A DNA stretch of 64,000 bases from an uncultured delta proteobacterium (GCA_963804955.1 CAWDSQ010000007.1:96001-160000), one strand, 5' to 3'; positions 8,157-21,168 are shown, numbered from the stretch's first letter. Notes: a model not told the origin generated them from the sequence alone. A program made the numbers and translations.

Positions 8157-8660
8157 GTGAGGCACAGTCAGCAAAAAATCGAAGAAATAAAACGCCATAA
8201 AAACAAACCCGAGCAGCGCTTCCTGTGCGACCTTGCCCTGCGCGAGCAGGACCATATCGTTCTGGTCTATCATGCTTCATCTGCAGGCCGCATCGCCGAC
8301 ATCGACATCGCCCCCGGCTCCACAACCATTGCCCACTACTGGCAGGCAGGCGGTTATGTTCTCTGGCGCATGTTTGCAGCCGACCAAACGCTTGTCGGAA
8401 CGCTCTTTCATATCTGCGCTAATACTGATATACAGGAAACTAGCGTCAGCTATGATGATCTGATTTTAGATGTCTGGATTACCACGCAAGGGGTTGCGCG
8501 CGTGCTTGATGAGGATGAATTGGCCGATGCAATCAAGGCAGGGGTGGTCACAAATAACGAGCAGAGTTGTATTGAAAGACAGAGACAGATTATTCTTTCT
8601 GACTACGCTGCCATAATAGATCGAATACGGGATATTGAATCAGCTATTTTAAACCGGTAG
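8157..8660 (+). CDS. DUF402-domain protein
   Basis: YDDLILDVWI...VLDEDEL motif. Confidence 0.7.
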   Translation: MRHSQQKIEEIKRHKNKPEQRFLCDLALREQDHIVLVYHASSAGRIADIDIAPGSTTIAHYWQAGGYVLWRMFAADQTLVGTLFHICANTDIQETSVSYDDLILDVWITTQGVARVLDEDELADAIKAGVVTNNEQSCIERQRQIILSDYAAIIDRIRDIESAILNR

Positions 8661-8729
8661 GGTGGATTTGCCAAGCACGTCCACAGTGTTTTCAAAATTT
8701 CGTGGACACACTTCGTTATTTTACCTACG
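8657..8729. repeat. GTAG-type REP-like palindrome
   Basis: gtagggtgg...gtccac...gtggac...cctac arrangement. Confidence 0.5.
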
Positions 8730-8769
8730 ACAACCATGAACATTATTTCCCTTAGAAAGGACTGCTGCC

Positions 8770-9588
8770 ATGACTGGCGATACGCTGGGCGGCTCTACAG
8801 AATTTGAAGTCGTAAAAATCAGGGACGGTTCTGCCGAAACTTTCACGCAGGCCGTGGCGACCGAGGTGCCGTGCACAATCGTCATCAACGGCAAAGAGGC
8901 TGTTACCACCCTGATGACGCCCACTCACTTTAAGGAATTTGCCGTGGGGCATCTTTTTACCGCAGGCATTATCACGCGGGCCGAAGACATAGTCAGCTGC
9001 AGCTGCGACGAGATCAGGTGGCGCCTTGATGTGGAGACGCGGCGCGAGGTTGATCTTGATCTTTTAGGCAAGCGGGTCTACACCAGCGGCTGCGGCAAAG
9101 GGGTCATGTATGCCAATGTCATCGAGCTTTCGTCGCGCCACCCGCTGCCTTCAGGGTTCACGGTGCAGGCAGGCCATCTGAAAGCGGCCATACAGTGGCT
9201 CCTGTCAAGCTCGACACTTTTCCAGGCGACCCGCGGCGTGCACTCCGTGGCGCTGGGCCTGGGTGGCGCGCTGCCTGACATGCTTATCGACGATATCGGC
9301 CGCCACAATGCCGTAGACAAAATTATCGGGTACGGCCTGCTGCACGGCCTTGATTTTTCGCGCAGCATACTGCTCAGCACCGGCAGGACCTCCTCGGAGA
9401 TACTGCACAAGGCAAAGCGGGCGGAGATACCCATAGTGCTCTCACGCGGAGCGCCGACACACCAGACAATTCTTCTCTCGCGAGACATGGGCGTTACGGT
9501 AGCCGGCTTCAAACGGTCGGGAGACATTGTCGTCTACTCAAACTGGCAGCGTGTGCTTACCGATAGCGGCATCCCTTCAATGGAATGA
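8770..9588 (+). CDS. fdhD: Formate dehydrogenase accessory sulfurtransferase FdhD
   Basis: TSGCG, TRGVHS, DIGRHNAVDKIIG and STGRTSSE. Confidence 0.93.
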   Translation: MTGDTLGGSTEFEVVKIRDGSAETFTQAVATEVPCTIVINGKEAVTTLMTPTHFKEFAVGHLFTAGIITRAEDIVSCSCDEIRWRLDVETRREVDLDLLGKRVYTSGCGKGVMYANVIELSSRHPLPSGFTVQAGHLKAAIQWLLSSSTLFQATRGVHSVALGLGGALPDMLIDDIGRHNAVDKIIGYGLLHGLDFSRSILLSTGRTSSEILHKAKRAEIPIVLSRGAPTHQTILLSRDMGVTVAGFKRSGDIVVYSNWQRVLTDSGIPSME

Positions 9589-9703
9589 ATAAAAAATTTT
9601 TGGGTCGGTTCGCTAATTGCCCTGGGGTAAAACGTATACCAACTGATTAGATGGTGCGCGATGCGCACCCTTTCTTTCAAACCCGCAATTCGAGAGGAGC
9701 TTT

Positions 9704-11100
9704 ATGATCGCAACTTTAACATTCATGGGAGCAACAGGCACGGTTACCGGGTCGCGGTATCTTCTGAAAGCCGAAGGTAAAAAATACCTCATCGACTGCG
9801 GCCTGTTTCAGGGCTTGAAAGAAATACGGCAGCGCAACTGGGAACCCTTCCCTGTGCCGCCAAATGAAATCGACCGTGTACTGCTGACCCATGCCCATAT
9901 TGACCACTGCGGCTTTCTGCCACGCATTGTGCAGCAGGGTTTCAAAGGGCCGGTGCACTGCACCTTTCCCACGGCAGACATCTGCAGCCTCGTCCTCAGA
10001 GACAGCGCCTACCTTCAGGAAGAAGACGCGCGGTACGCAAACAAAAAAGGCTTCTCAAAGCACAAGCCCGCCCTGCCCCTCTATACTGTGCAGGATGCCG
10101 AAGATGCCATCAGCCTCTTTAAACCAGTACACTACGGCCAGGACCTCTTTTCTCAAATACCATGCGCGTCAAATTCAAGGACGCGGGGCATATTCTCGGC
10201 TCATCGTTTATCGACGTGAAGCTCATGCAGGCAGACAAGCCGACCCGCATCCTCTTCAGCGGTGACATCGGCAGCCCCGACCGCCCCATACTGCGCGACC
10301 CCACGCAGGTATTTGAAGTGGACTATCTCGTGCTTGAATCGACCTACGGCGACCGCACCCATGACCACGGCGACGACGCCCGCCGGGACGGGCTGGCCCG
10401 TATTATCAATGAAAGCGTAAAACGCGGCGGCATACTTATCATTCCGTCGTTTGCCGTGGAGCGCTCGCAGGAGCTGCTCTACTATATCCGAGAACTTGAG
10501 GACCAGAAACGCATTCCCGTGCTGCCGGTCTATCTTGATTCGCCCATGGCAGTGTCAGCCACTGAGATCTTTGAAAAATGGAAGCTTGTCTACGATATGG
10601 AAGCACGAATGCAGGAGCTCGACGGCAGGCATATCATGCAGACACAGATGCTGCATGTCGTGCGCGATGCCTCTGAGTCAAAGCTGCTGCACAATGTGAA
10701 GGGCCCGGCCATATTCATTTCCGCCAGCGGCATGCTTGAAGGCGGCCGCATACTGCATCACCTTGAGCACCGCCTTCCCTTCGCGGAAAACACTGTCCTC
10801 TTTGTCGGGTATCAGGCCGAGGGCACGCGCGGCAGGTCGATCCTCAACGGCAGCCCGACCATTAAGATTCACGGGCAGATGATTCCCGTGCACGCCAAAA
10901 TCGAGAATATCACCGGTTTCTCCGGCCATGCCGATTACAAGGAGATCCTTGCCTGGCTCATGGGCTTTAACCGGCCGCCGGTTAAAACCTTTATCGTCCA
11001 CGGTGAGCCTGATGCTGCTCAAGCCATGGCTAAAAACATCAGAACAACACTTGGCTGGGAGGTTGAAATACCGGAGTTCATGCAAACAGTTCAACTGTAG
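9704..11100 (+). CDS. MBL-fold beta-CASP ribonuclease (frameshift near 10150)
   Basis: GTVTGS and THAHIDH in the first ORF; AGHILGS, FSGDIG, ESTYG and FSGHAD in the second. The two ORFs together make one protein. Confidence 0.9.
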
Positions 11101-11121
11101 GAAGATAAAAACAATAATCAG

Positions 11122-11157
11122 AAGGCCGGGCTGCTGCACACAGCCCGGCCTTTTTTA
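11122..11157 (+). terminator. Intrinsic terminator
   Basis: aggccgggctg...cagcccggcc followed by tttttt. Confidence 0.85.
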
Positions 11158-11230
11158 TTGATGCAACTAAATCGTGACACGAACAAAAAACATACATAGC
11201 AGGCTGGAGTAAAACGGCTGCGTTGCCATC

Positions 11231-12106
11231 TCACTTGGCTTTTCGGCGCTCGTACATTTTGCAGATATCCGACAGTGCGGCAGCCATGGCGGGATTTGTC
11301 TTCATAATCTCCACGGTTTCATCAGGAGATTCCAGAAGCTTAAGATAGGCTGCCTCAACGGTATTTGTTTTCATCCGCAGAACCCCGAACAGCATATCGG
11401 CAATATCCACGCCTCTGATATTGGCATAAAAATTAGAGCTGTAATACAAGTCACACATCAGGCACAGCCGGGCTATTGCAGTGCCGGGCTTATGATGCTG
11501 GTGAATATATTTCGGGTTGAGCACATAAATTCTAATTTTTTTGATGCTGTGACAGGTTAAAAAATACATGTACCGGTTAAAATCCTTACCCTCGCCGAAA
11601 ACCTTTTCGGCAAGTTCACGCTGAGCCTTATTGAGGCCGCCGCTCTTAACGTTCTGCCAGTAGTAGCGCGTATCGATTTCAAAATAGGCAAATTCAGGAT
11701 CAAATTCTTTAAGTTTCAGAGAAAAAAGCCTGGTTCTATGCGTATGCCCCGTTTTAACCGAGTCGTAAACTTTTTTTACTTCATCTTTGCTGAGCCGGTA
11801 GTTTTCATTAGCCAGCATCTGCCGGCATGCTTCTTCCAGATTGTTGAAAATGGGGTTTGCTTCACGCCTGCCAAAATACAAAAAACCCTCTTTGCCGAGC
11901 TTTGTTTTTTCAACCGCATACATGCCGAAGTCTGCCGTGAAATAAAAATAATTCAAAAATGCAGGATCCGTGATGTTCTTATAGTCCATAGCCCGCTTGG
12001 CTGCTATGTCGGCAGATGTTGAAATAAAATCAGCATCAAAAAGGGCTGCATCCTTTTGAAATATCCCCCTGTTTTTCTTATTGGTAATAAGTTTAATTAT
12101 ATCCAT
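11231..12106 (-). CDS. Hypothetical protein resembling DPANN (Woesearchaeota-type) DGR variable proteins
   Basis: 291 aa, AT-richer than neighbours. FTAD, NPIFNN, RIYVLNPKY and a C-terminal AR...SNF.A..R.V......GV pattern. Similarity is from recall, not a search. Confidence 0.6.
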   Translation of the reverse strand: MDIIKLITNKKNRGIFQKDAALFDADFISTSADIAAKRAMDYKNITDPAFLNYFYFTADFGMYAVEKTKLGKEGFLYFGRREANPIFNNLEEACRQMLANENYRLSKDEVKKVYDSVKTGHTHRTRLFSLKLKEFDPEFAYFEIDTRYYWQNVKSGGLNKAQRELAEKVFGEGKDFNRYMYFLTCHSIKKIRIYVLNPKYIHQHHKPGTAIARLCLMCDLYYSSNFYANIRGVDIADMLFGVLRMKTNTVEAAYLKLLESPDETVEIMKTNPAMAAALSDICKMYERRKAK

Positions 12107-12321
12107 GTCTTTTCACAAAAAAGCTGTTGTCTGGTTATAGTGCATGGAGGGGTTGCCCAATCGTACCGGGCAGAGGCCAATGCTTGTGATGCCCGAATAA
12201 GGCATGCATCAATGCGCAGGCTAAATCCCCCTCCCTCCAAAAAAAACTATTTGATCAACGTATACCGATTTAAGCAATACAACCAATCAACAAATCAATA
12301 TTTACCAGATAATAGTACATT

Positions 12322-12336
12322 ACAAATATTGTGCCA
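12322..12336 (-). promoter_or_regulatory. Sigma-54 promoter candidate for the 12106 gene
   Basis: Minus strand TGGCAC-AATAT-TTGT. Confidence 0.6.
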
Positions 12337-12734
12337 ATTTGTTTAAATAAATTAATCAAGCATTTTCGATTAGTTAAAAACATGCTGGAGTTAGTAACAA
12401 CTAAAAATGTGTCTCATGATACATAAATGCACAAGCAAAAGCGTATCAAAACCTTACTGTCCCTGTCTGTTTATATAATTGGATGGCCGTAGGGTTGAAG
12501 CTAAAAAAAGAGTGGCAAAGGCAATCGTTGAGGCTCTTAAATACACATCTCCTGCTTAAAAAAGCGGCACAGGCAGCCCAGCGGCGGATTTGGATGTGAT
12601 AGGGGTTTTCGATTTTTTAGTCGAGATCTGCGGAATTAAACTTACTCAATAATTGTGAGGGTAGAAGGTGATTTTATAGCAGCAAAGTTCTTCAACCAAA
12701 TTAAACGGCTTGAGTCTAGCCGGCTCTTCTTTGC

Positions 12735-13271
12735 TCACAACCACCAGAACAGGCATGGCGCCAGGAAAACAAACGAGCCGAGGATGGCTGCCATGTAAAA
12801 AAACAAAAGGGGTATACACACCAGAAACTGCGGAAATAATTCCGGACTAAAAATCATGTTCGGGATCAATAAAACCATATAGCCAAAGATAACAAAGGCC
12901 TTGTGCATATTTTGCTCGAGCAGCATAATCGCTTGATTGCACTGAGCCTCAAATACTTCCACCTGTGCCAATCGATCCTGAACCGCGCGGACCCGCCCGC
13001 GTGCACCATATGCCTGGTCGGCAGTAATATGCATGGCCTGCAGATTTCCGGACCTGATAAGTTGTACGAGATCGCGCAGGCTTTTTTTGGCATCTGCCTG
13101 TAAACTCAGGGCAACATCAGCAGTGCAGGTGGTATCCCGTTCCGCACAGGCGGCATAGGCCTCCAGAAGCGTTATACTGTCAGAGCTGATATCATAAAGC
13201 GTTTTCTCCTGTGCAGGCGATGCAGACGGAAGCGCCAGAACGCACAAAAACAGCAGCATCATTTTTTTCAT
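12735..13271 (-). CDS. Secreted/membrane protein, CLFWWL family copy 1
   Basis: Signal peptide MKK...SPA-QEKTL, C-x6-C, CN, a hydrophobic C-terminal third, ends PCLFWWL. Confidence 0.85.
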   Translation of the reverse strand: MKKMMLLFLCVLALPSASPAQEKTLYDISSDSITLLEAYAACAERDTTCTADVALSLQADAKKSLRDLVQLIRSGNLQAMHITADQAYGARGRVRAVQDRLAQVEVFEAQCNQAIMLLEQNMHKAFVIFGYMVLLIPNMIFSPELFPQFLVCIPLLFFYMAAILGSFVFLAPCLFWWL

Positions 13272-13327
13272 AAATTGTACCCCCTTGAAAACAAGCGATT
13301 GCATTTCGGCTCTTCATCAGTCCAAAA

Positions 13328-14623
13328 TCACATTAATGCAGCCGGAACTGGCAGCAAGGTCACGTTATCTGTAGACCATTGCTCTTTCCAGGCAATCACG
13401 CTGCCATCTTCAGCCAGTGCCGAATACCCGTCTATAAATTCAGAATTGCTATATTCTAAAAAGCCGTGGTTGTCATCCTCACCGGCATCAAAGGCGTTCA
13501 CGGCAATAATGTTGTTAAACTCATGATGAAAAACCAGAACCCCCGAATGCACGCCGCCATACCATTGATAATATCCCCATACAACTATTGACCCATCCTG
13601 CTTCAGCGCAATATTATTGCTGTCTCCCGAAGCAGCCGCTGTTGCCCGAAGCCTTCCTGCGCGAATCGGAAGAGGGACATCCCTCCACCCGGATATATAA
13701 TTTATATGCCTCTGCACGACATTCCCGTCAGACTGCACCGCCACATCGAAATTGCTCCCCAGGGATATTGAAACTGCATCATTAACAGGGGTCATATAGC
13801 TGTGGGGCCATTTCGCTATCGTGCCGTCCGCCTTCACCGCCGCGCATCGACCTTCTCCTGCGCCGATGCTGACCACATCGCTGATAGCGGCAGGAACATG
13901 CATCGGCTCTTCATTCATAAAACCCCACCCGACAAGATTGCCGTCTGCTTTTAAAGCAAGAAAATGATGATAGCCGGCGGCAACCGCCACCACATCAGCA
14001 AGCCCGTCAGGAACAGGAAGCTCCTGAGGGCAGGAAAGCGCATCACATGACCACACCACCACCGTCCCGTTGTCTTTTAGCGCAACGCTGTAGTCATTGC
14101 TTTTTGCTATGGCGGTTACATTTCTGAGCCCCTCAGGGGTTTCTAGTAGTTTGCCGTCTTCAAAGCTCCATTCCACAACCGTACCGTCGGCCTTGAGCGC
14201 AAGGCTGCCATGAGTAGTTGAAGCAAGCGCTATGGCTTTTTCAGTCTTGAAAACCCGGAATTTTTTGGCCACTTCCTTCATTGGCCCTTGTTCAACAGCC
14301 GCAGTAATGGTGATCAATTTCTCGCCTGGATTTTCAGGGTTCACCTGCCCAATCCAGCGCCAGGTGCCGTTATCGGTTGCCAGTAGTTCCTGTTCTGCCT
14401 GGCCGCCGATTTCGCTCAAATCAGCCGTAACCGTAACCGGCGCAAGAGCCTCTGGCGCCTGCCGCCAGATCACCCTCACATCGCAGGTCTGCCCAACCAA
14501 CAGACGCCCCATAAGAAATATGCGATTGCGCTGCATCGAGAGGTCAAGGGGCGGCTTGCATCCTGCCGCTGCAAGCAGCCCTAGTACCGCCAGTCCGATA
14601 CATAATTTTTGTATTTTTTTCAT
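13328..14623 (-). CDS. RCC1/BLIP-II repeat lipoprotein, copy 1
   Basis: Lipobox LAAAGC and repeated ALKADGTVVxW units. Confidence 0.88.
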   Translation of the reverse strand: MKKIQKLCIGLAVLGLLAAAGCKPPLDLSMQRNRIFLMGRLLVGQTCDVRVIWRQAPEALAPVTVTADLSEIGGQAEQELLATDNGTWRWIGQVNPENPGEKLITITAAVEQGPMKEVAKKFRVFKTEKAIALASTTHGSLALKADGTVVEWSFEDGKLLETPEGLRNVTAIAKSNDYSVALKDNGTVVVWSCDALSCPQELPVPDGLADVVAVAAGYHHFLALKADGNLVGWGFMNEEPMHVPAAISDVVSIGAGEGRCAAVKADGTIAKWPHSYMTPVNDAVSISLGSNFDVAVQSDGNVVQRHINYISGWRDVPLPIRAGRLRATAAASGDSNNIALKQDGSIVVWGYYQWYGGVHSGVLVFHHEFNNIIAVNAFDAGEDDNHGFLEYSNSEFIDGYSALAEDGSVIAWKEQWSTDNVTLLPVPAALM

Positions 14624-14648
14624 TCATTACCCTTTTCAATAATATTCA

Positions 14649-14677
14649 GCAGGGGCATGGCATGCCGTGCCACTACA
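14649..14677. repeat. REP-like palindrome
   Basis: gcaggggcatggcatgccgtgccactac, a GTAG-family-like hairpin. Confidence 0.5.
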
Positions 14678-14716
14678 ACTGATTTACCTCAACCATTCCA
14701 ATACAGCCAATCCCGC

Positions 14717-15256
14717 TCACAGCCACCAGAAAAGGCACGTTGGCGATAAAATAATCGTCATGAGGAAGGACCAAAGGGTTGAGCCTATAAGAACCATAAG
14801 TTCGATCATAAATCTTACAGGGCCTTCATATAAAATAACAAGATAAAGCAACAGGGGGTTCAAAAAGCTCGCCAGATACTGCAAATTACCGAGCAGTTGA
14901 ACAAAATAATGAATTCCCGCATTGCAGCTCTCATCGGCAATTGCAATATGCGCAAGCTGCTCCCGCACAACCCTGGCGCGAACGCTCAGCGCCGAAGCCT
15001 GACCGGGGGTGAGCATTATGCGGCTGCGGTCGCCCGACTTTACCAGCCCCACAAAATCCCGCAGGCCGTTTACAGCTCCTGCCTTTATGGCCAGCATATC
15101 TTCGGAGGTGCAGGCGCTCTCCCGGTCCGCACAGGCTGCGTACGCCTCAACCAGAAAAAACATGTCCTGGCTGATATCGTTGAGTGTTTTTTCCTGTGCC
15201 CGGACTGCGGCAGGCAGCAGCGCGATACATAAGACCAATAGTATGGTTTTTTTCAT
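14717..15256 (-). CDS. Secreted/membrane protein, CLFWWL family copy 2
   Basis: MKK...VRA-QEKTL, AYAACAD...C, SCN, hydrophobic tail, ends PTCLFWWL. Clear paralog of 12735..13271. Confidence 0.85.
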   Translation of the reverse strand: MKKTILLVLCIALLPAAVRAQEKTLNDISQDMFFLVEAYAACADRESACTSEDMLAIKAGAVNGLRDFVGLVKSGDRSRIMLTPGQASALSVRARVVREQLAHIAIADESCNAGIHYFVQLLGNLQYLASFLNPLLLYLVILYEGPVRFMIELMVLIGSTLWSFLMTIILSPTCLFWWL

Positions 15257-15284
15257 TTCACACCTCCCCTGGGTGCATTCTTTA

Positions 15285-16579
15285 TCATTGTAATTCCTCC
15301 GGCACTGTTAGCTCATGCTGGCCATCCCACCACTCTTCCCATGCCAGAACGCTGCCGTCCGCGGTCAGGGCCATGCTGTTGGGCGGCGTAAAACCGCACA
15401 GGCCATCGGCTATGGCAATTATGTTTGCCAGCCTTTCATGGCTGACATAATACAAACCCGCATACTGGGTCGCGCGCCACCAGAGCATGACCGTGCCGTC
15501 TTCCTGTAGCGCCATCCAGTGACTCCCACCAGCAACTACAGCTTTTGCCCTCAAGTCGCCTGCCCGGCGAGGCAGGCTGTCACCCCGGCCGCCCCACATG
15601 ACTGCGCTGCCATTGTCTGTTAAGGCAAGAGCATTCTCCCACGCATCAATAGCCACCACGTTTTCAAGGCCTTCCGGCGCATCACAATAGTCCTCCGGAT
15701 ACGCCCAGAGATCCTCAGTTCTTACTGCAAGCCATGAAGCTACCGTACCATCGGCTTTCAGCGCATGTGCGCAGGCATTACCCGCCGCCAGTGCAACAAC
15801 ATCGGTGAGCCCTTGCGGTATGTTCAGCCCGAGGCTATCATTATCGCCCCAGGCTGCTACTGTGCCATCAGCTTTCAGCGCAAGGTTATATATGGCTGCG
15901 GCGGCTATGGCTACTATATCCGTAAGATTATCCGGCACATCGAAACTTTCATCACTGCTATTGCCCCATGCCGCTACCGTTCCGTCGGCTTTCAGCGCAA
16001 GGTTATGATAATAACCTGCAGCTATGGCCACAACATTGCCGAGACCTTCAGAGGCATAAAACGCCTCTTGATTCTGATCACATTTCACATACGAACCAGC
16101 CGTCCCGACCTGCCAGTCAACCACGGTGCCGTCAGCTTTCAATGCAAGGCTTTGGGCCGCACCGCAATCAATAGCTACTGCCTTTGCTGCCGCATTATGC
16201 ACCTGCACCTGCTTTTCGCTCGGGTATTCTTCATCATCCGCGTCCAGCGCGGTAATGCGCAGCGTCTTCTCGCCGAACGCCGGGGCGCAACCTTGCCGCT
16301 CCACCGCCAGATGCTTTGGTTATCTGCGGTCAGTTCCTGTGCCGCATCTCCGCCGATTTCACTTAAATCCGCCGTCACCGTTACCGGCACGGGGTCATTA
16401 GCCCCGGCGCGCCAAATCAGGCGCACATCGCAGGCCTGGCCCGACAGAAGCCGGCCGAGCAGAAATATGCGGCTGCGGTGCAACGACAGCGGCTCTTGTG
16501 GCTCAGGTTTTTTACATGCTGTTGCCGCCAGCAGTCCCAGCGCCGCAAAAGATACCAATACTTTTTGTAATGTCTTCAT
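15285..16579 (-). CDS. RCC1/BLIP-II repeat lipoprotein, copy 2 (frameshift near 16300)
   Basis: N-terminal ORF has lipobox LAATAC and PVTVTADLSEIGG shared with copy 1. Second ORF has ALKADGTVAAWG repeats. Confidence 0.85.
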
Positions 16580-16651
16580 GTATACCCCCGTACAGTTTGT
16601 CATAAAAGCATTTTAAGAGCATCCAGTCGTGTCCCAATGCTGTGCGCCCGC

Positions 16652-16723
16652 TCATAACCACCAGAACAGGCATGGCGCCAGGAAAACAAACGAGCCGAGG
16701 ATGGCTGCTATAATATTTCCCCA
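16652..16723 (-). pseudogene. C-terminal remnant or mini-ORF of a CLFWWL-family gene
   Basis: Encodes ...AAILGSFVFLAPCLFWWL*. 16650-16708 matches 12733-12791 at 58/59 nt. Confidence 0.8.
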
Positions 16724-16989
16724 TTAGCACCTCCTCTGTGTGATTGGATGTGAAAGTATTTTTACACTACATTCTCTGCATGCTCAGACCGTGCTGTGCT
16801 TTGGTCATGCACAATACTGCTCTGAGCCCCTACAGCAAAGATGCCGGTTTCTCTACAACCCTACATGGCAATACAAGCTCCCGGATGCCCACGGGAAGAG
16901 TAATACCAAGCCAACGCATAGGCACAATACATATAGCCCCTATCAATCATGCCACTCTAGCCATTCACGCTCACACATAAAAAAAATCG

Positions 16990-17072
16990 GGGCACCGGAA
17001 CCGCACAGGTCTGCCCTACAAGCAGCCCCAGCGCAACACTACCATCAAATTTTTTATACTGTTTTTATGCAT
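16990..17072 (-). pseudogene. Decayed 5' end of an RCC1-lipoprotein-like gene
   Basis: Minus strand AAAGGGG RBS, then AAAACAGTA-TAA-AAAATT...GCGCTGGGGCTGCTT and GTAGGGCAGACCTGT, echoing the ALGLL and VGQTC segments of the intact paralogs. Confidence 0.45.
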
Positions 17073-17128
17073 TCCCCTTTACACGGGTCCATTCATCATG
17101 AATACAATGCGCCGGGCCCCCGCCGCTT

Positions 17129-18340
17129 TCAATACTCATTATTCATTACCGGATTTTTTTGCAGTTCAGTAATATCAAGCTTATACAAAATATCCCAGCC
17201 GAAGGAGCCCGGTTCCCCCCCTATTCCGAAAAGCCACAAATTTGAGCCGGATAAAGCAATACTGTAAGGAGTTGAAAGCGGGCCATTTCCGGTTCTCCCG
17301 CCGGTGGGCGGATATATGAGACTTACGATATTTCCATCCATATCAATCTTATAAAGCATCTTTCCATATATACTGTCGGTAACCCAGAAGTATGTTCCGT
17401 CAAAAGCGATGCCATAGGGATTATCAAAAGGCAGGGGAATTGCCGTGTCGCAGAAACCATTCATATCGCATTTATTGATGCTCCTGGCTTGTCCGGCCAC
17501 GTACCAAACAGTACCATCCTTCACGAAAATACCCCTGGGGTCGCCGGGCGCACGAAAGGACGCAACCGGTTCGCCTGTTTTGGTAAACTTGTAAATGCTT
17601 TCGGAATGGAATTCGGTATACCAGATAAAGTCCCCATCTGCCGCAATACCGCGCACCTCATGATTCTCAGTCAGGGGGTAGCGTAACGATCGGTTCGGGC
17701 AAAAAATAACCAGCGTCCTCGGGAGCAGCAATGCCTGCTATAATCCGTTTTCCTGTGGAATTGTCGATGCCGAGCGTCCACAGCACCCCACCGTCAAAGG
17801 TTCCCACCGGAGTTACTGATTTCCAGTGCTGCACAACAGGCAGACTGGCAAGGGGCGGAGACCAGCCCATATCTGTTTCCTGGAGAAAAGGAATTTTACG
17901 ATTAAATATGGGTCGCAGGCGGACAAAGTCCGGCAGGAATCCGGCCATTCCCACAGCTTTCATCGTCAGGGCGGGCTCTTTCAGATTTACTCTACCCCAG
18001 ACGAAATACAGCGCGCTCCCTATGAGAGATTTAGGATTTTGACTAGAAACCCGTAATAGCGCATGTCAGCGTTCAAATCTGACCTGCTTATACTAAATCC
18101 ATACACCTCATCGAATACATACGTGCTGGTTGACCGCCAGTACATTTTGCCGCCGTAAAAGCCGACTTCCTCCCTGGCATACCATTCACTGTAATAAGAC
18201 CCATCATAAAAGCCCCAGAGCAAACCGGTGAGCCCATCGCTGGAATATGACCAGTCTGCGGCATCGGCAGGGTTGAATGGCAGAAGTACAACAAGAGTGA
18301 GGCAGGATAAAAGAATTATTTTTGCGCGTGTTGTAAGCAT
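17129..18340 (-). CDS. Secreted protein with a C-terminal beta-propeller (about 2 frameshifts)
   Basis: Signal peptide ending ADA. Three overlapping ORFs. Repeats of GI(A/F)xDGxxxW. Confidence 0.65.
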
Positions 18341-18442
18341 GTAGTCCCCTTTTTAATTTTACCCCGAAGAGGCATCCGCCGCAGCGGACATCGTGAAACT
18401 ATAACTGCGTCACCTCAATCGTTCCGGAACAGACAATCGTTC

Positions 18443-19056
18443 TCACAGCCGGAAAAAAAGAACCGGAAAAACAAGGCTCGGCAGCAAACAAGGTGCAGCA
18501 AATAAAGATTTTAACGTAGTGCATGCCCCCCATTACAAGCTGCAATACAAAAATACGGCTAGGCTATAACCGTATGCATCAACTGCAGCGCAAGCGCGAC
18601 CAGCATTCTTGCGCTATTGCATGACCCATCATGCATTTCTATTTTTGAAAACCGGCCTCGTACTTCTTCGGACCAAAAACGCAGGGCTTTCTCTTCTTCG
18701 GCAGTTAAAACCAGGGCACGCATATCGCCCGACTTTATAAGACTCTTAAGATCCTGAAGGGTCTTTTCAGCATTGGCTTTTAATGCCTTGCCATCCTCTT
18801 CAGTACAGGCAATATCATGATGTGCGCATGCCGTAAGCGTCTCTGCAAGGATAAGCGTCCGGGCGCTGATCTCGTACAGCCTGTTCTCATGCGCTTGCAT
18901 TTTGCAACTCACCCGCACCCGGCAGGACGTGTTCGCATAAACCGGCTCGGTGAAAGACAGTTCGTTTATCCGCGGCCAGGGCTGATCTTTAAACACCGCA
19001 GCTGTCAAAAGCCCCAACGCTGCAACTGTCAGTAAAATTTTATGAACGGTTTTCAC
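18443..19056 (-). CDS. Chimeric CLFWWL-family copy 3 (disrupted 3' end)
   Basis: GTG start after GAGGAG. The N-terminus KTVHKILLTVAALGLL resembles the RCC1 lipoproteins. The core LYEIS...ACA...C...SGD...SCN resembles the CLFWWL proteins. A downstream FFRL* ends at 18443. Confidence 0.7.
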
Positions 19057-19696
19057 GCTCTCCTCACTGTATGCTTTACTGCCCAGGGGTATTCGCCGGG
19101 GCTGAGACCGCACCCTGCAACTGCAAACATTGCTGCATAAATATATCTTTAGCCGTATTACTTTGAGTAAAGAAGTGCTGTTCCCGTTTTCCCCTTGCAC
19201 GTTCCCCCTGCAAGGGCAGGCAAAAAACTAAACTAACACTATTCAAATTAACGCAAGACGCGTACCAAAAAAATTAACTTGCTCTGAAAAAATCCAGAAC
19301 ATAATAAAAAGTATTGAAAAACAGATGGTTGAAAAAAATAAAAAAATAGCGGCTGCTTTGGCTCCATAAGCGGTAAAATACAATTGGCTGATTTCAGCCA
19401 GCAAAAGGGGTTGAAATAAATTTCATTGGTTGAATCCAGCCAATTACAGGTGATATGTATCGCCGGGGTTGACGGATTGAACTGCACATAACATGCCTGT
19501 TCCCTGCAATGCTTCAGATATGCCTGCCCGAATAATTTCTTGAGAAAAATGCGGCGCAAAGGTATATTTTGTGGAGAAACAGCCCAGGGTAATTCCCGGC
19601 TGACAGGAGCAAACTAAAAAAAAGAGCTCACGGGGGCCTTTGAGGGCCAACCCAGCTTCTTGAGCTTTATGCACAATATCATGACAGGACGATTGC

Positions 19697-20110
19697 ATGC
19701 CGATCTATGAATACTACTGCACGCCGTGCCACACCATTTTCAGCTTTCTGTCACGCACAGCAAACGTAAGCAGGCAGCCCGCCTGCCCTCGCTGCGGCGG
19801 TGAGATTCGCAAACAGGTTTCATCATTTGCCTTCTCCCAAAAGATGAGGGGCACTGAAAGTTTGCCCTTTTCGACACAGCAGGCAGAAGAAGGCGTTAAA
19901 AAGCTCAAAAGCGAAATCGACCGACTGAAGTCAGAGGAAAGCCCGCAGCGCGCCGCGCAGTTCAAAAAAAATTTCGAACGCTGGTCGGGCGTGAAGCTCG
20001 ACCACTCGGCTGGCTCCCTGCGCGGCGTTGAGCTTGCGCCTGAAAAAGGAGAGCCCCCTGAAGAAGAAGGCCCGCCTCCGGAGCGCGATGATACGATTTA
20101 TGATTTATAA
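19697..20110 (+). CDS. FmdB-family zinc-ribbon protein
   Basis: MPIYEYYCTPC...CPRCG. Confidence 0.9.
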   Translation: MPIYEYYCTPCHTIFSFLSRTANVSRQPACPRCGGEIRKQVSSFAFSQKMRGTESLPFSTQQAEEGVKKLKSEIDRLKSEESPQRAAQFKKNFERWSGVKLDHSAGSLRGVELAPEKGEPPEEEGPPPERDDTIYDL

Positions 20111-20118
20111 ACAAGCAG

Positions 20119-20310
20119 TTGGATTGGTTAATCTGGTTATATTAGTTTAATTGGTTTTATTGGTTGATTTGTTGAAACCGGGCTTAAATCATCTATGCTC
20201 ACACGGACGATCTTCAGAGACATTGCTGGTTGTCAATTGATGGTTGTTCATTCATCTAACGAGCATTGACCTTTGACTATTGACCACTGACCAATAAACC
20301 ATTGACCATT
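20119..20310. repeat. Degenerate 9-mer and 7-mer tandem repeats
   Basis: ttggttaat-like units (20119-20176) and cattgac/ctttgac/tattgac/cactgac units (20263-20310). Confidence 0.65.
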
Positions 20311-20316
20311 CCCTGC

Positions 20317-21168
20317 ATGATGACCCTTGACCAGCTTCGCACAAACAAAGTGGGCCTGGTTCTCTCATCAGGCTTTTTCGGCTTCTACGCGCACGCGGGC
20401 TGCCTGTGCGCCCTTTCCGAAATGGGCATTCATCCGATGGGATATGCCGGCAGCAGCGCCGGCGCCATCATAGCCGCAATGGGGGCCTCGGGCATGGCCT
20501 GCGAAAAAATCCGCGAGCGCCTGTTCCCCCTGAAAAAAAAAGACTTCTGGGACCCTGAGCCATGGTACCGCGTGGCGCTGCACGGACTTCGCCTGTTTCG
20601 CGGGTGGCATGGCTACCTGAACGGCGACAGGTTCGCAACACTGCTGCAGCGCATGCTGCCCGTAGCGACTTTTGAAGAGCTGCGCTGCCCCTGCGTTATA
20701 ACTACCATTAATTTAAACACTAAAAAACGCGAGTGGCGCACTGCCGGAAATCTTGCTGATGCGGTGCAGGCATCCTGCACCGTGCCCTGGCTGTTCAAGT
20801 TCAAAATCATGGACGACGCCCTGCATGTTGACGGAGGATTTGCCGACAAGGCGCCGGTCGAGGCACTTGCCCGGCACATGCAGCCCGATGTGCTCATCGT
20901 GCACTACCTGAAATCAAGCAACCTGCGCGGCGATGATCAGTCGTTCCTCAACCGGCGATTCTCAGCCGGCAAGGCCAAAACTCTTGCCGTCACCATCGGC
21001 CGCCACGAGCACTACCTCACGCAGAAGCGGCTTGTCGAGCAGATGGGCATCCCTGTGCTTGAAATAGCCCCCGAGCTTCCTTCTGTCTCCCCTGCTCATA
21101 TTGACCGCGGCCCTGCGGCTTTTGAGCAAGCACGACAGCAGACACTGCTGTTATTGAACAGCCTATAA
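20317..21168 (+). CDS. Patatin-like phospholipase
   Basis: GSSAG nucleophile elbow and DGG motif. Confidence 0.88.
   Translation: MMTLDQLRTNKVGLVLSSGFFGFYAHAGCLCALSEMGIHPMGYAGSSAGAIIAAMGASGMACEKIRERLFPLKKKDFWDPEPWYRVALHGLRLFRGWHGYLNGDRFATLLQRMLPVATFEELRCPCVITTINLNTKKREWRTAGNLADAVQASCTVPWLFKFKIMDDALHVDGGFADKAPVEALARHMQPDVLIVHYLKSSNLRGDDQSFLNRRFSAGKAKTLAVTIGRHEHYLTQKRLVEQMGIPVLEIAPELPSVSPAHIDRGPAAFEQARQQTLLLLNSL

Follow-up and report, generated by a model that had tools for sequence, protein, structure and literature searches.

The window analyzed here is a stretch of 64,000 nucleotides (nt) from an uncultured delta proteobacterium of the sulfate-reducer type (GCA_963804955.1 CAWDSQ010000007.1:96001-160000), with positions counted from its first letter. 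Between positions 12,735 and 19,056, it contains a strain-variable array in which the gene for an RCC1-repeat propeller lipoprotein is followed by the gene for a small hydrophobic protein (SP). Two such gene pairs and the relics of further units were found, all on the minus strand. We consider it about an even call that the array represents a lineage-restricted two-gene envelope module, composed of the propeller lipoprotein and a predicted inner-membrane partner, arranged as recombining tandem cassettes.

Paired genes and their linkage

Along the minus strand, from high to low coordinates, the order of elements is a chimeric open reading frame (ORF), its broken tail, a broken propeller-type gene, a deletion scar, RCC1-2, SP2, RCC1-1, SP1, and a hairpin. 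The two gene pairs and the hairpin are located as follows, with lengths in amino acids (aa) and E values of a profile of the SP family in the window's genome.

14623..13328, minus strand: RCC1-1 lipoprotein gene of unit 1, 431 aa; Pfam RCC1_2, 57.9 bits against a cutoff of 22
13271..12735, minus strand: SP1 gene of unit 1, 178 aa; SP profile E value, 3.4e-77
16579..15285, minus strand: RCC1-2 lipoprotein gene of unit 2, split in the assembly; RCC1_2, 75.4 bits against a cutoff of 22
15256..14717, minus strand: SP2 gene of unit 2, 179 aa; SP profile E value, 1.1e-90
12722-12706, minus strand: terminator-like hairpin, 13 nt past the SP1 stop

The first-pass annotation of this DNA had described two co-oriented pairs of a lipoprotein gene and a small gene, and this layout was borne out: the gaps are 56 nt between RCC1-1 and SP1 and 28 nt between RCC1-2 and SP2, and the small proteins are 178 and 179 aa long. 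A further 93 nt separate SP2 from RCC1-1. A purine-rich, Shine-Dalgarno-like run lies ahead of every start, with AAGGGGG preceding the SP1 ATG at 13271. The short gaps and the ribosome-binding-type sites suggest that the lipoprotein gene and the SP gene are probably co-transcribed. The hairpin at 12722-12706 may mark the end of the array transcript; terminator-like sites numbered 18 in the region versus 9.0 ± 2.7 in shuffled sequences, which is weak evidence for the hairpin.

The pairing of the two genes extends beyond the window and is strong. The SP gene lies directly downstream in eight of eight intact genes of the lipoprotein subfamily with readable downstream DNA (two in the window, one in contig C31, two at locus L007, and one each at L008, L023, and L026). 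Outside this count are L172 and L173, which run off their contigs, and L174 and L175, which are broken relics without an SP gene. Conversely, the upstream DNA is known for 10 SP genes, and an RCC1 gene precedes 9 of them, among which is that of metagenome locus L073. At L074 and L108, the SP gene is followed by the next lipoprotein gene, indicating arrays at other loci. Metagenome contigs were sampled with a degenerate DNA pattern for the C-terminal SP motif; at least 119 stretches matched, with five true family members among the matches listed, and this represents a sample rather than a census. At L008 and L023, the pair is located among genes for Lcl_C and BspA-type leucine-rich repeat (LRR) proteins, with tyrosine recombinase genes nearby.

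Both families show a patchy distribution. The SP profile matched 4 of 21 genomes of the order, namely three of the five members of the window's genus and G018, which belongs to another family. A profile of the lipoprotein N-terminal domain detected the same three genus members and not G018, such that the phyletic profile of the 21 genomes was both families in 3, SP alone in 1, lipoprotein alone in 0, and neither in 17. In an even sample of the phylum, SP was found in 2 of 401 genomes, both from the same order and none outside it. In viral contigs, no relatives were found with patterns drawn from the alignment, and none of 26 pattern matches was a family member. A radical-SAM gene was also considered as an obligatory neighbor and rejected: it lies beside the units in L007 and C31, is deleted in the window, and is absent at L008, L023, and L024.

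The small protein and the propeller lipoprotein

The alignment of the small proteins contained all of the shared motifs noted in the first pass, namely the signal peptide, QEKTL.DIS, C-x6-C, SG, CN, and the CLFWWL end. SP1 and SP2 are 43% identical in the N-terminal domain (N-domain) and 12% in the tail. The hydrophobic segment had been put at approximately 55 aa, which is too short, as the tail comprises 66–67 aa in the window copies; in SP1, the hydrophobic hairpin lies between Cys111 and Cys173. The structural model of SP2 had a predicted local distance difference test score (pLDDT) of 86.6 and a predicted template modeling score (pTM) of 0.58, with helices at residues 25–43, 51–74, 84–101, 105–131, 134–144, and 146–178. 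In this model, an antiparallel three-helix bundle is formed, and its third helix runs on into a long hydrophobic helical hairpin. The N-domain modeled alone gave a pLDDT of 89.2 and a pTM of 0.76.

Analysis of 34 family members demonstrated that the only invariant columns are Cys111, which belongs to the CN motif, and Cys174. Cys42 and Cys49 of the C-x6-C pair were present in 31 members and were lost together in the other 3. The tail ranges from 52 to 82 residues, with a mean hydropathy of 1.68 and 2.6 charged residues. The last six residues had a mean pairwise identity of 75%, as compared with 32% for the N-domain and 15% for the tail; the C-terminus reads C[LFV][FLW][WF]W[LI] in 26 of 34 members and is shorter in the rest (CLL, CLF, CLLLL, etc.). 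The SP2 model and this alignment together agree with the earlier description of a conserved N-domain followed by a variable hydrophobic hairpin. A staple between Cys111 and the C-terminal Cys is geometrically plausible, because both cysteines are positioned at matching ends of the antiparallel helical hairpin in the model.

The SP signal is of the Sec type with an A-x-A site. When a Sec signal is followed by two very hydrophobic helices, transfer is expected to stop in the inner membrane of the producing cell. SP is therefore predicted to reside in the inner membrane, with its two termini facing the periplasm and its invariant cysteines at the periplasmic interface. We also considered the SP end as a general sorting tag of the PEP-CTERM or MYXO-CTERM type. 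C-terminal sorting signals combine a short motif with a single membrane helix and a basic tail and are carried by many unrelated cargo proteins per genome. The SP end, with two helices and no basic tail, did not fit this type; in a six-frame search of the whole genome for the C-terminal motif ahead of a stop, all five matches were SP copies and relics, and no other protein was matched.

The small protein represents an undescribed family, in agreement with the first-pass statement that no described system of this kind was known. A search of 1.84 billion representative sequences with the SP profile (E value up to 1e-3) matched 43 clusters. Of these, 42 are 54–200 aa long and one is a weak match of 855 aa (P0045; E value, 6e-5), in which six short stretches align with profile positions 68–93. 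No family for the small protein was present in Pfam or NCBIfam at E values up to 0.1, and a Pfam scan of all 34 members returned two chance-level rows, each in one member. No match was found in PHROGs or PADLOC, and the best sequence E value in PDB was 0.35. Foldseek returned nothing at E values up to 1e-3 for the full SP2 model or its N-domain, and ESM Atlas had no usable match for SP2. The best VIA Z-scores were 8.9 (root-mean-square deviation [rmsd] 2.0, 68 aligned residues, hairpin only) and 6.8 (rmsd 6.0, 90 aligned residues, N-domain), both within the range stated for generic helical arrangements; the fold matches were generic hairpins and bundles. In the literature searched, "CLFWWL" did not occur, and the titles examined on RCC1, lipoprotein, beta-propeller, bacterial, and periplasm described no such pair.

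Among RCC1-repeat propellers, the lipoprotein is unremarkable. RCC1_2 (PF13540) scored above its cutoff in both proteins, and the whole-domain model WD40_RLD (RCC1-like domain, PF25390) scored below its own (55 and 105.8 against 150). The protein is composed of a signal peptide, a lipobox with Cys22, a very conserved N-terminal domain of approximately 100 aa containing Cys47, and the RCC1-repeat propeller. The bacterial lipoprotein signal is defined by the lipobox rule. With a signal ending ..LGLLAAAGC(22)K.. and an invariant lipobox cysteine, proteins of the RCC1-1 type fit the bacterial lipoprotein pattern. Both Cys22 and Cys47 are unchanged in every one of the 32 subfamily members compared, and the N-terminal domain carries the pattern RNRIFLMGRLL.G.TCDVR..WR.... 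The subfamily contains approximately 45 full-length clusters. Across the eight units, mean pairwise identity was 63% in the N-domain and 48% in the propeller. A search of ESM Atlas with the lipoprotein N-domain yielded chance-level leads only (scores, 0.77–0.79).

Haplotypes, scars, and relics

Two further haplotypes, C31 (a contig of the same bin) and L007 (from a related genome), follow the gene order of the window between the FdhD and MBL genes at one end and the zinc-ribbon gene at the other. In its flanks, C31 is 96–97% identical to the window, and the middles differ. The window carries the units RCC1-2/SP2 and RCC1-1/SP1; L007 carries a radical-SAM gene, a third unit, and RCC1-2/SP2; and C31 carries a radical-SAM gene, a fourth unit, and an orphan SP1 tail located 23 nt past the stop of that unit, in which homology to the window begins directly after the CN motif. 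L026 (genome G004) holds yet another combination of units. Its lipoprotein is 86% identical to that of window unit 1 in the N-domain and 82% identical to that of L007 unit 3 in the propeller, and its SP is 62% identical to that of L007 unit 3 in the N-domain and 74% in the tail, the tail being the more conserved part. Along the pair of L026 and L007 unit 3, dS by segment was 1.07, 0.25, 0.59, 1.48, 0.86, and 0.44, with omega (dN/dS) of 0.10–0.38. These differing unit sets, together with the mosaic of identity and dS, upheld the proposal of a recombining array.

Omega was 0.07–0.55 throughout the coding parts of the units, including 0.24–0.28 in the propeller. Along the small gene, which the first-pass annotation had singled out for dN/dS analysis, no sign of an arms race was obtained, as omega was below 1 in the tail too (0.38–0.55). 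The N-domain of the SP2 orthologs gave an omega of 0.07, from 3 non-synonymous and 12 synonymous changes, and the tail gave 0.55, from 8.5 and 4.5, respectively, although these counts are small. Propeller divergence and SP N-domain divergence were correlated, with a Spearman coefficient of 0.84 over 28 non-independent pairs drawn from eight units. The comparisons demonstrate that the array occupies a hot spot flanked by conserved genes, that its units are composed of segments from old alleles, and that scars remain where deletions have occurred. The pattern is one of recombination among old alleles under purifying selection; it is not one of decay, and no arms race is demonstrable.

One of the bordering genes, 628 nt beyond SP1, is conserved and encodes a 291-aa cytoplasmic protein (11231-12106, minus strand). 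The gene adjoins the array in each of four haplotypes (window, C31, L007, and L026) and is under strong purifying selection (omega 0.03–0.16), and searches of Pfam, NCBIfam, PHROGs, and PADLOC returned no match for the protein. The region of this gene is AT-richer than its surroundings (GC 0.37–0.47).

C31 (16005 bp; genome G000) is collinear with window positions 8171-20513 and represents a second version of the whole locus with different units, either from a co-binned strain or from a segmental duplication (second locus). It contains a radical-SAM gene that is intact (555 aa) and additional genes in the left flank; where the window has its broken gene of the 490-aa type, C31 has a repeat propeller gene of 788 aa. 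At C31 14843-14976, a repeat of approximately 130 bp is inserted that is absent at the corresponding window position (~19482); the genome has dozens of copies (76–96% identical) on many contigs, and the repeat looks like a miniature inverted-repeat transposable element (MITE) or an element of the repetitive extragenic palindromic (REP) type.

Three genes of the region are frame-broken in the assembly. RCC1-2 is read in two frames owing to a 1-nt deletion, a break that the first-pass annotation had not recorded: compared with the intact L007 ortholog, one C is lost from the C-run at 16282-16285. The extra base is present in contigs of X2 and X3, the public runs that cover the site, and the downstream part of RCC1-2 has an omega of 0.28 against the intact L007 ortholog. 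Contigs of run X1 have no cover over unit 2 and those of X3 none over unit 1, and these gaps were not read as absence; a loose end was observed in the run contigs past the SP2 stop. RCC1-2 is probably intact in the organism. The second break is in the MBL-fold hydrolase gene (9704-11100, plus strand), which is split near 10148 into ORFs of 171 and 312 aa by a change from T5 to T4 and is intact in C31 (465 aa), suggesting homopolymer errors across the assembly. Both breaks are probably assembly errors rather than decay, because they are single-base homopolymer deletions without a counterpart in relatives and, for RCC1-2, because of the other runs. Homopolymer errors in such assemblies can mimic gene decay, and caution is required when broken genes are interpreted. 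The third broken gene (17129-18340, minus strand) is a homolog, 84% identical, of a 490-aa secreted L007 protein with weak Vgb_lyase/DUF5050 propeller matches. It is broken into three ORFs and differs from L007 by a 174-nt in-frame deletion, a +2 shift near 18041, and a +1 shift in a C-run near 17678.

The remaining features of the array are as follows.

16652..16711, minus strand: SP1-like relic, the last 20 codons and the stop (AAILGSFVFLAPCLFWWL before the stop); 97% identical to the SP1 3' end over 62 nt
16712..16901, minus strand: radical-SAM gene relic, comprising the upstream region and first few codons (including 16712-16730); 88% identical to C31 11239-11430
16985..17060, minus strand: internally deleted 5' relic of an RCC1-lipoprotein gene (..ALGLLVGQTCAV..); also present in L007
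19056..18559, minus strand: chimeric ORF of 165 codons, with a lipoprotein-type signal, approximately 30 residues of the lipoprotein N-domain, and an SP N-domain
18443..18558, minus strand: frame-broken remnant of the chimera's hydrophobic tail, recognized by repeat alignment and translation, which ends LFFRL before a stop in another frame

The segment 16652-17072 had been called a decayed third unit. Relics are indeed present there, but a three-way alignment demonstrated that they form a composite deletion scar and not one unit. At the junction (~16712/16711), the start region of the radical-SAM gene, which is complete in L007 and C31, is fused to the end of an SP1-like gene.

The segment 18443-19056 had been called a chimeric fourth copy. 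The chimera itself was confirmed, but its open frame covers 19056..18559 only, and the tail down to ~18443 is frame-broken. The chimera is matched by the SP profile (E value, 1.3e-47, in the window's genome); its lipobox Cys is replaced (Val-Phe in the window), and it stops after ..TVIA, where the tail should begin. The ORF recurs with its stop in C31 and L007. The chimera was considered as a selected gene and rejected, as the open frame is compatible with neutral drift (P 0.13–0.31); its omega was 0.50–0.82. In G004, its position, adjoining a patatin-like flank gene, is occupied by a full lipoprotein gene (L172), which fits an origin of the chimera by an old internal deletion.

Readings of the module and comparison with known systems

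If the two proteins act together, the variable RCC1 propeller of the lipoprotein would presumably bind a ligand or partner, and its N-terminal domain would present one invariant free cysteine (Cys47). SP would reside in the inner membrane with periplasmic termini, so that its three-helix bundle, putatively stapled by the C-x6-C pair, and its two interface cysteines are at the periplasmic face, and it would serve the lipoprotein as a membrane-tethered partner or anchor. Several observations weigh against this two-gene envelope module. No calculation performed here places the two proteins in contact; a complex prediction for RCC1-1 (residues 23–431) and SP1 (residues 21–178), both entered as alignments and run without controls, scored 0.01 and 0.03 against a mark of 0.32, which speaks in neither direction on binding. 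The inter-domain confidence of the SP2 model is modest (pTM 0.58), and topology, signal cleavage, disulfides, and co-transcription are predictions from sequence. Physical linkage alone can produce the co-divergence seen between the propeller and the SP N-domain. Furthermore, the SP gene at L024 (G018) follows the gene for a 750-aa Lcl_C protein and not an RCC1 gene, and G018, which is 98% complete, has two SP genes and no lipoprotein of the subfamily, so SP does not strictly need the lipoprotein. The G018 proteins are the most divergent of the family and lack the C-x6-C pair and the WW end. Homologs unlinked to RCC1 genes, which the first-pass annotation had regarded as evidence against the system, were thus encountered in part, at this distant locus, which holds 1 of the 10 SP genes with known upstream DNA.

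The main rival is that lipoprotein and SP are not partners but fast-evolving neighbors that were co-amplified in a duplicating surface-protein island. This is unlikely, although the G018 genes support it, as do the several other secreted-protein genes and the tyrosine recombinases in the islands, and linkage alone would explain the correlated divergence. It does not readily account for the constant order of lipoprotein gene and SP gene with a gap of 28–56 nt in eight of eight cases, at four or more chromosomal sites in three genomes, or for the same patchy distribution of both families in three of the five genomes of the genus; moreover, both lipoprotein genes found without an adjoining SP gene are broken relics. 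Should the two proteins prove to be cognate partners, they would offer a compact system to study how recognition specificity is reshuffled through cassette exchange; should they not, the locus would still be a well-resolved case of mosaic evolution at a chromosomal hot spot.

A further reading assigns the pair to self/non-self recognition or adhesion, in which a polymorphic surface-receptor propeller and a co-transcribed SP would form types through cassette exchange, in the manner of TraA/TraB. We regard such a role as rather improbable, yet as the most interesting one compatible with the data. The propeller is variable and the N-domain conserved (48% versus 63% mean pairwise identity), strains differ in their unit sets, neighboring genes elsewhere are of the adhesin type (Lcl_C, BspA-type LRR), and the propeller and SP N-domain co-diverge. 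TraA and TraB of Myxococcus xanthus are reported to be a kin-recognition pair (PMC6372800, PMC3820747). The likeness lies in a polymorphic envelope protein with a variable recognition domain encoded beside its partner at a locus that differs between related strains. The Myxococcus lineage was also formerly grouped with the present host as "delta proteobacteria." The two systems differ in that no TraA or TraB Pfam domain is present here at E values up to 0.1. TraA has a PA14-like domain with cysteine-rich repeats and MYXO-CTERM, and TraB has an OmpA-type domain. The partner here is a small inner-membrane hairpin protein, and several tandem units, known from sequence alone, occur per genome, unlike a single recognition locus. 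In addition, no sign of positive selection was detected (propeller omega 0.24–0.28), and surface exposure of the lipoprotein is only putative.

The two-gene envelope module could be extended into allele-specific receptor-anchor modules, an extension that we hold to be a speculative and improbable one. Each variable propeller lipoprotein would be fixed by its own SP to the periplasmic side of the inner membrane, through a membrane-proximal and perhaps covalent link from Cys47 to the SP interface cysteines, and cassette exchange would create strain-specific recognition types. If true, such modules would constitute a new system of self/non-self or ligand recognition in uncultured bacteria of the Desulfobacterota type.

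The toxin/immunity, bacteriocin-like, or secreted membrane-active roles suggested in the first pass were not supported and are quite improbable. In such a polymorphic system, the hairpin would be a membrane-active effector, the N-domain its carrier, and the displaced tails orphan modules. The tail is the most divergent part across the family (15% versus 32% mean identity in the N-domain), the locus is strain-variable, and the orphan SP1 tail of C31, 23 nt past a complete SP gene, resembles a displaced orphan module. Ordinary deletions would leave the same 3' traces, both this tail and the 20-codon relic in the window. Polymorphic toxins carry a C-terminal toxin domain on a larger secreted protein, and none was found in either protein; no toxin, peptidase, ABC-exporter, or immunity-type domain was present in the units or in the flanks read. 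As for bacteriocins, no processing, export, or immunity genes were read in the flanks of nine loci, and the SP leader is of the Sec type, not double-glycine or circular. Fused or longer forms were not found (42 of 43 matches, 54–200 aa; the long one weak, E value 6e-5), nor were relatives in viral contigs. The Sec signal and two hydrophobic helices should lodge the hairpin in the producer's own inner membrane. Tail omega was 0.38–0.55, and one pair shows higher identity in the tail (74%) than in the N-domain (62%).

The resemblance to known toxin loci is one of architecture. CDI and Rhs are polymorphic toxin loci with displaced orphan modules. With these, the array shares tandem strain-variable cassettes in which a conserved 5' part is joined to a variable 3' part, with truncated remnants located downstream. 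A lipoprotein is encoded by the first gene of each unit, as in SitA, which is reported as a group of myxobacterial lipoprotein toxins (PMC5562445, PMC8546572). The array differs from all three in having no toxin domain, no cytoplasmic immunity gene, a hydrophobic part predicted to lie in the cell's own membrane, and omega < 1.

An envelope-level phage defense or exclusion module in a variable island is very unlikely. A strain-variable hot spot between conserved genes, patchiness among close relatives, and a lipoprotein paired with an inner-membrane protein would suit such a role, but seven proteins of the locus had no PADLOC match, with one weak match for the radical-SAM enzyme (E value, 4.9e-5), none of five proteins matched PHROGs, and neither defense or phage genes in the flanks read nor relatives in viral contigs were found. 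An equally slight chance is given to a decaying pseudogene graveyard without current function, because, despite several relics, a chimera with relaxed omega (0.50–0.82), and three frame-broken genes, both SP genes and RCC1-1 are intact, omega is as low as 0.07 (SP2 N-domain) and 0.28 (RCC1-2), and the RCC1-2 and MBL breaks are probably assembly errors.

Arrays of variable envelope lipoproteins are already known; what is new here is the SP family and its pairing with one lipoprotein subfamily in two-gene cassettes. Mycoplasma vsp/vlp and Borrelia vls arrays likewise consist of tandem paralogous lipoprotein genes with a conserved signal and N-terminal part, a variable remainder, and recombination. 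They vary through repeats, promoter switches, or silent cassettes and are not known to have an obligatory second gene per unit, whereas here both genes and their ribosome-binding sites are contained in each complete cassette. BLIP-II is an exported bacterial seven-bladed propeller of the RCC1-like type that binds other proteins. It shares the repeat type (RCC1_2) in an exported protein, a likeness at the level of fold only; the propeller here is anchored by a lipid, has an additional conserved N-domain, and comes with an SP gene. In phage lysis cassettes, the Rz/Rz1 spanins combine an i-spanin with one N-terminal membrane helix and an o-spanin that is a tiny lipoprotein. They resemble the present pair in joining an inner-membrane protein with a helical periplasmic domain to a lipoprotein, with cysteines for covalent links, and differ in that no phage genes (0/5 in PHROGs), a 431-aa lipoprotein, and a C-terminal membrane hairpin are found here.

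Absent from curated libraries, the SP family can be recognized by a signal peptide followed by a three-helix bundle and by a hydrophobic hairpin that two invariant cysteines enclose. Gene order and shared distribution link the family to one subfamily of propeller lipoproteins, and the module is confined to a small uncultured clade, for which the readings of its role given above derive from sequence alone. Strain-variable envelope cassettes are where bacteria meet phages, neighbors, and surfaces, and almost nothing is known of them for uncultured anaerobes.

Further observations concern the islands at other loci. Short tyrosine-recombinase genes (Phage_integrase; E value, 4.5e-20) are duplicated around the Lcl_C gene (L008 4182-4772 and 7933-8682; L023 11413-12010), and the surface-protein islands may be organized by site-specific recombination. 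Several secreted island proteins have a C-terminal helical module of approximately 70 aa in common (..CPA..LG..NP.L..LR.FRD..LA.S..GR..I..YY...). This module was found at L008 1407-1739, as a separate 110-aa ORF, and at the C-termini of the proteins encoded by L008 5959-7629, L023 4677-5798, and L024 7966-9294. The 110-aa ORF had no Pfam match, and two proteins combining the module with Lcl_C matched Lcl_C only, plus Flg_new_2 on one of them. At L174 (G006:C25; 617-1114 and 2320-3554), a second FmdB-type zinc-ribbon gene adjoins a frame-broken RCC1-lipoprotein relic, an arrangement that mirrors the zinc-ribbon gene flanking the array in the window (19697-20110) and in G018 (L024 12442-12933).

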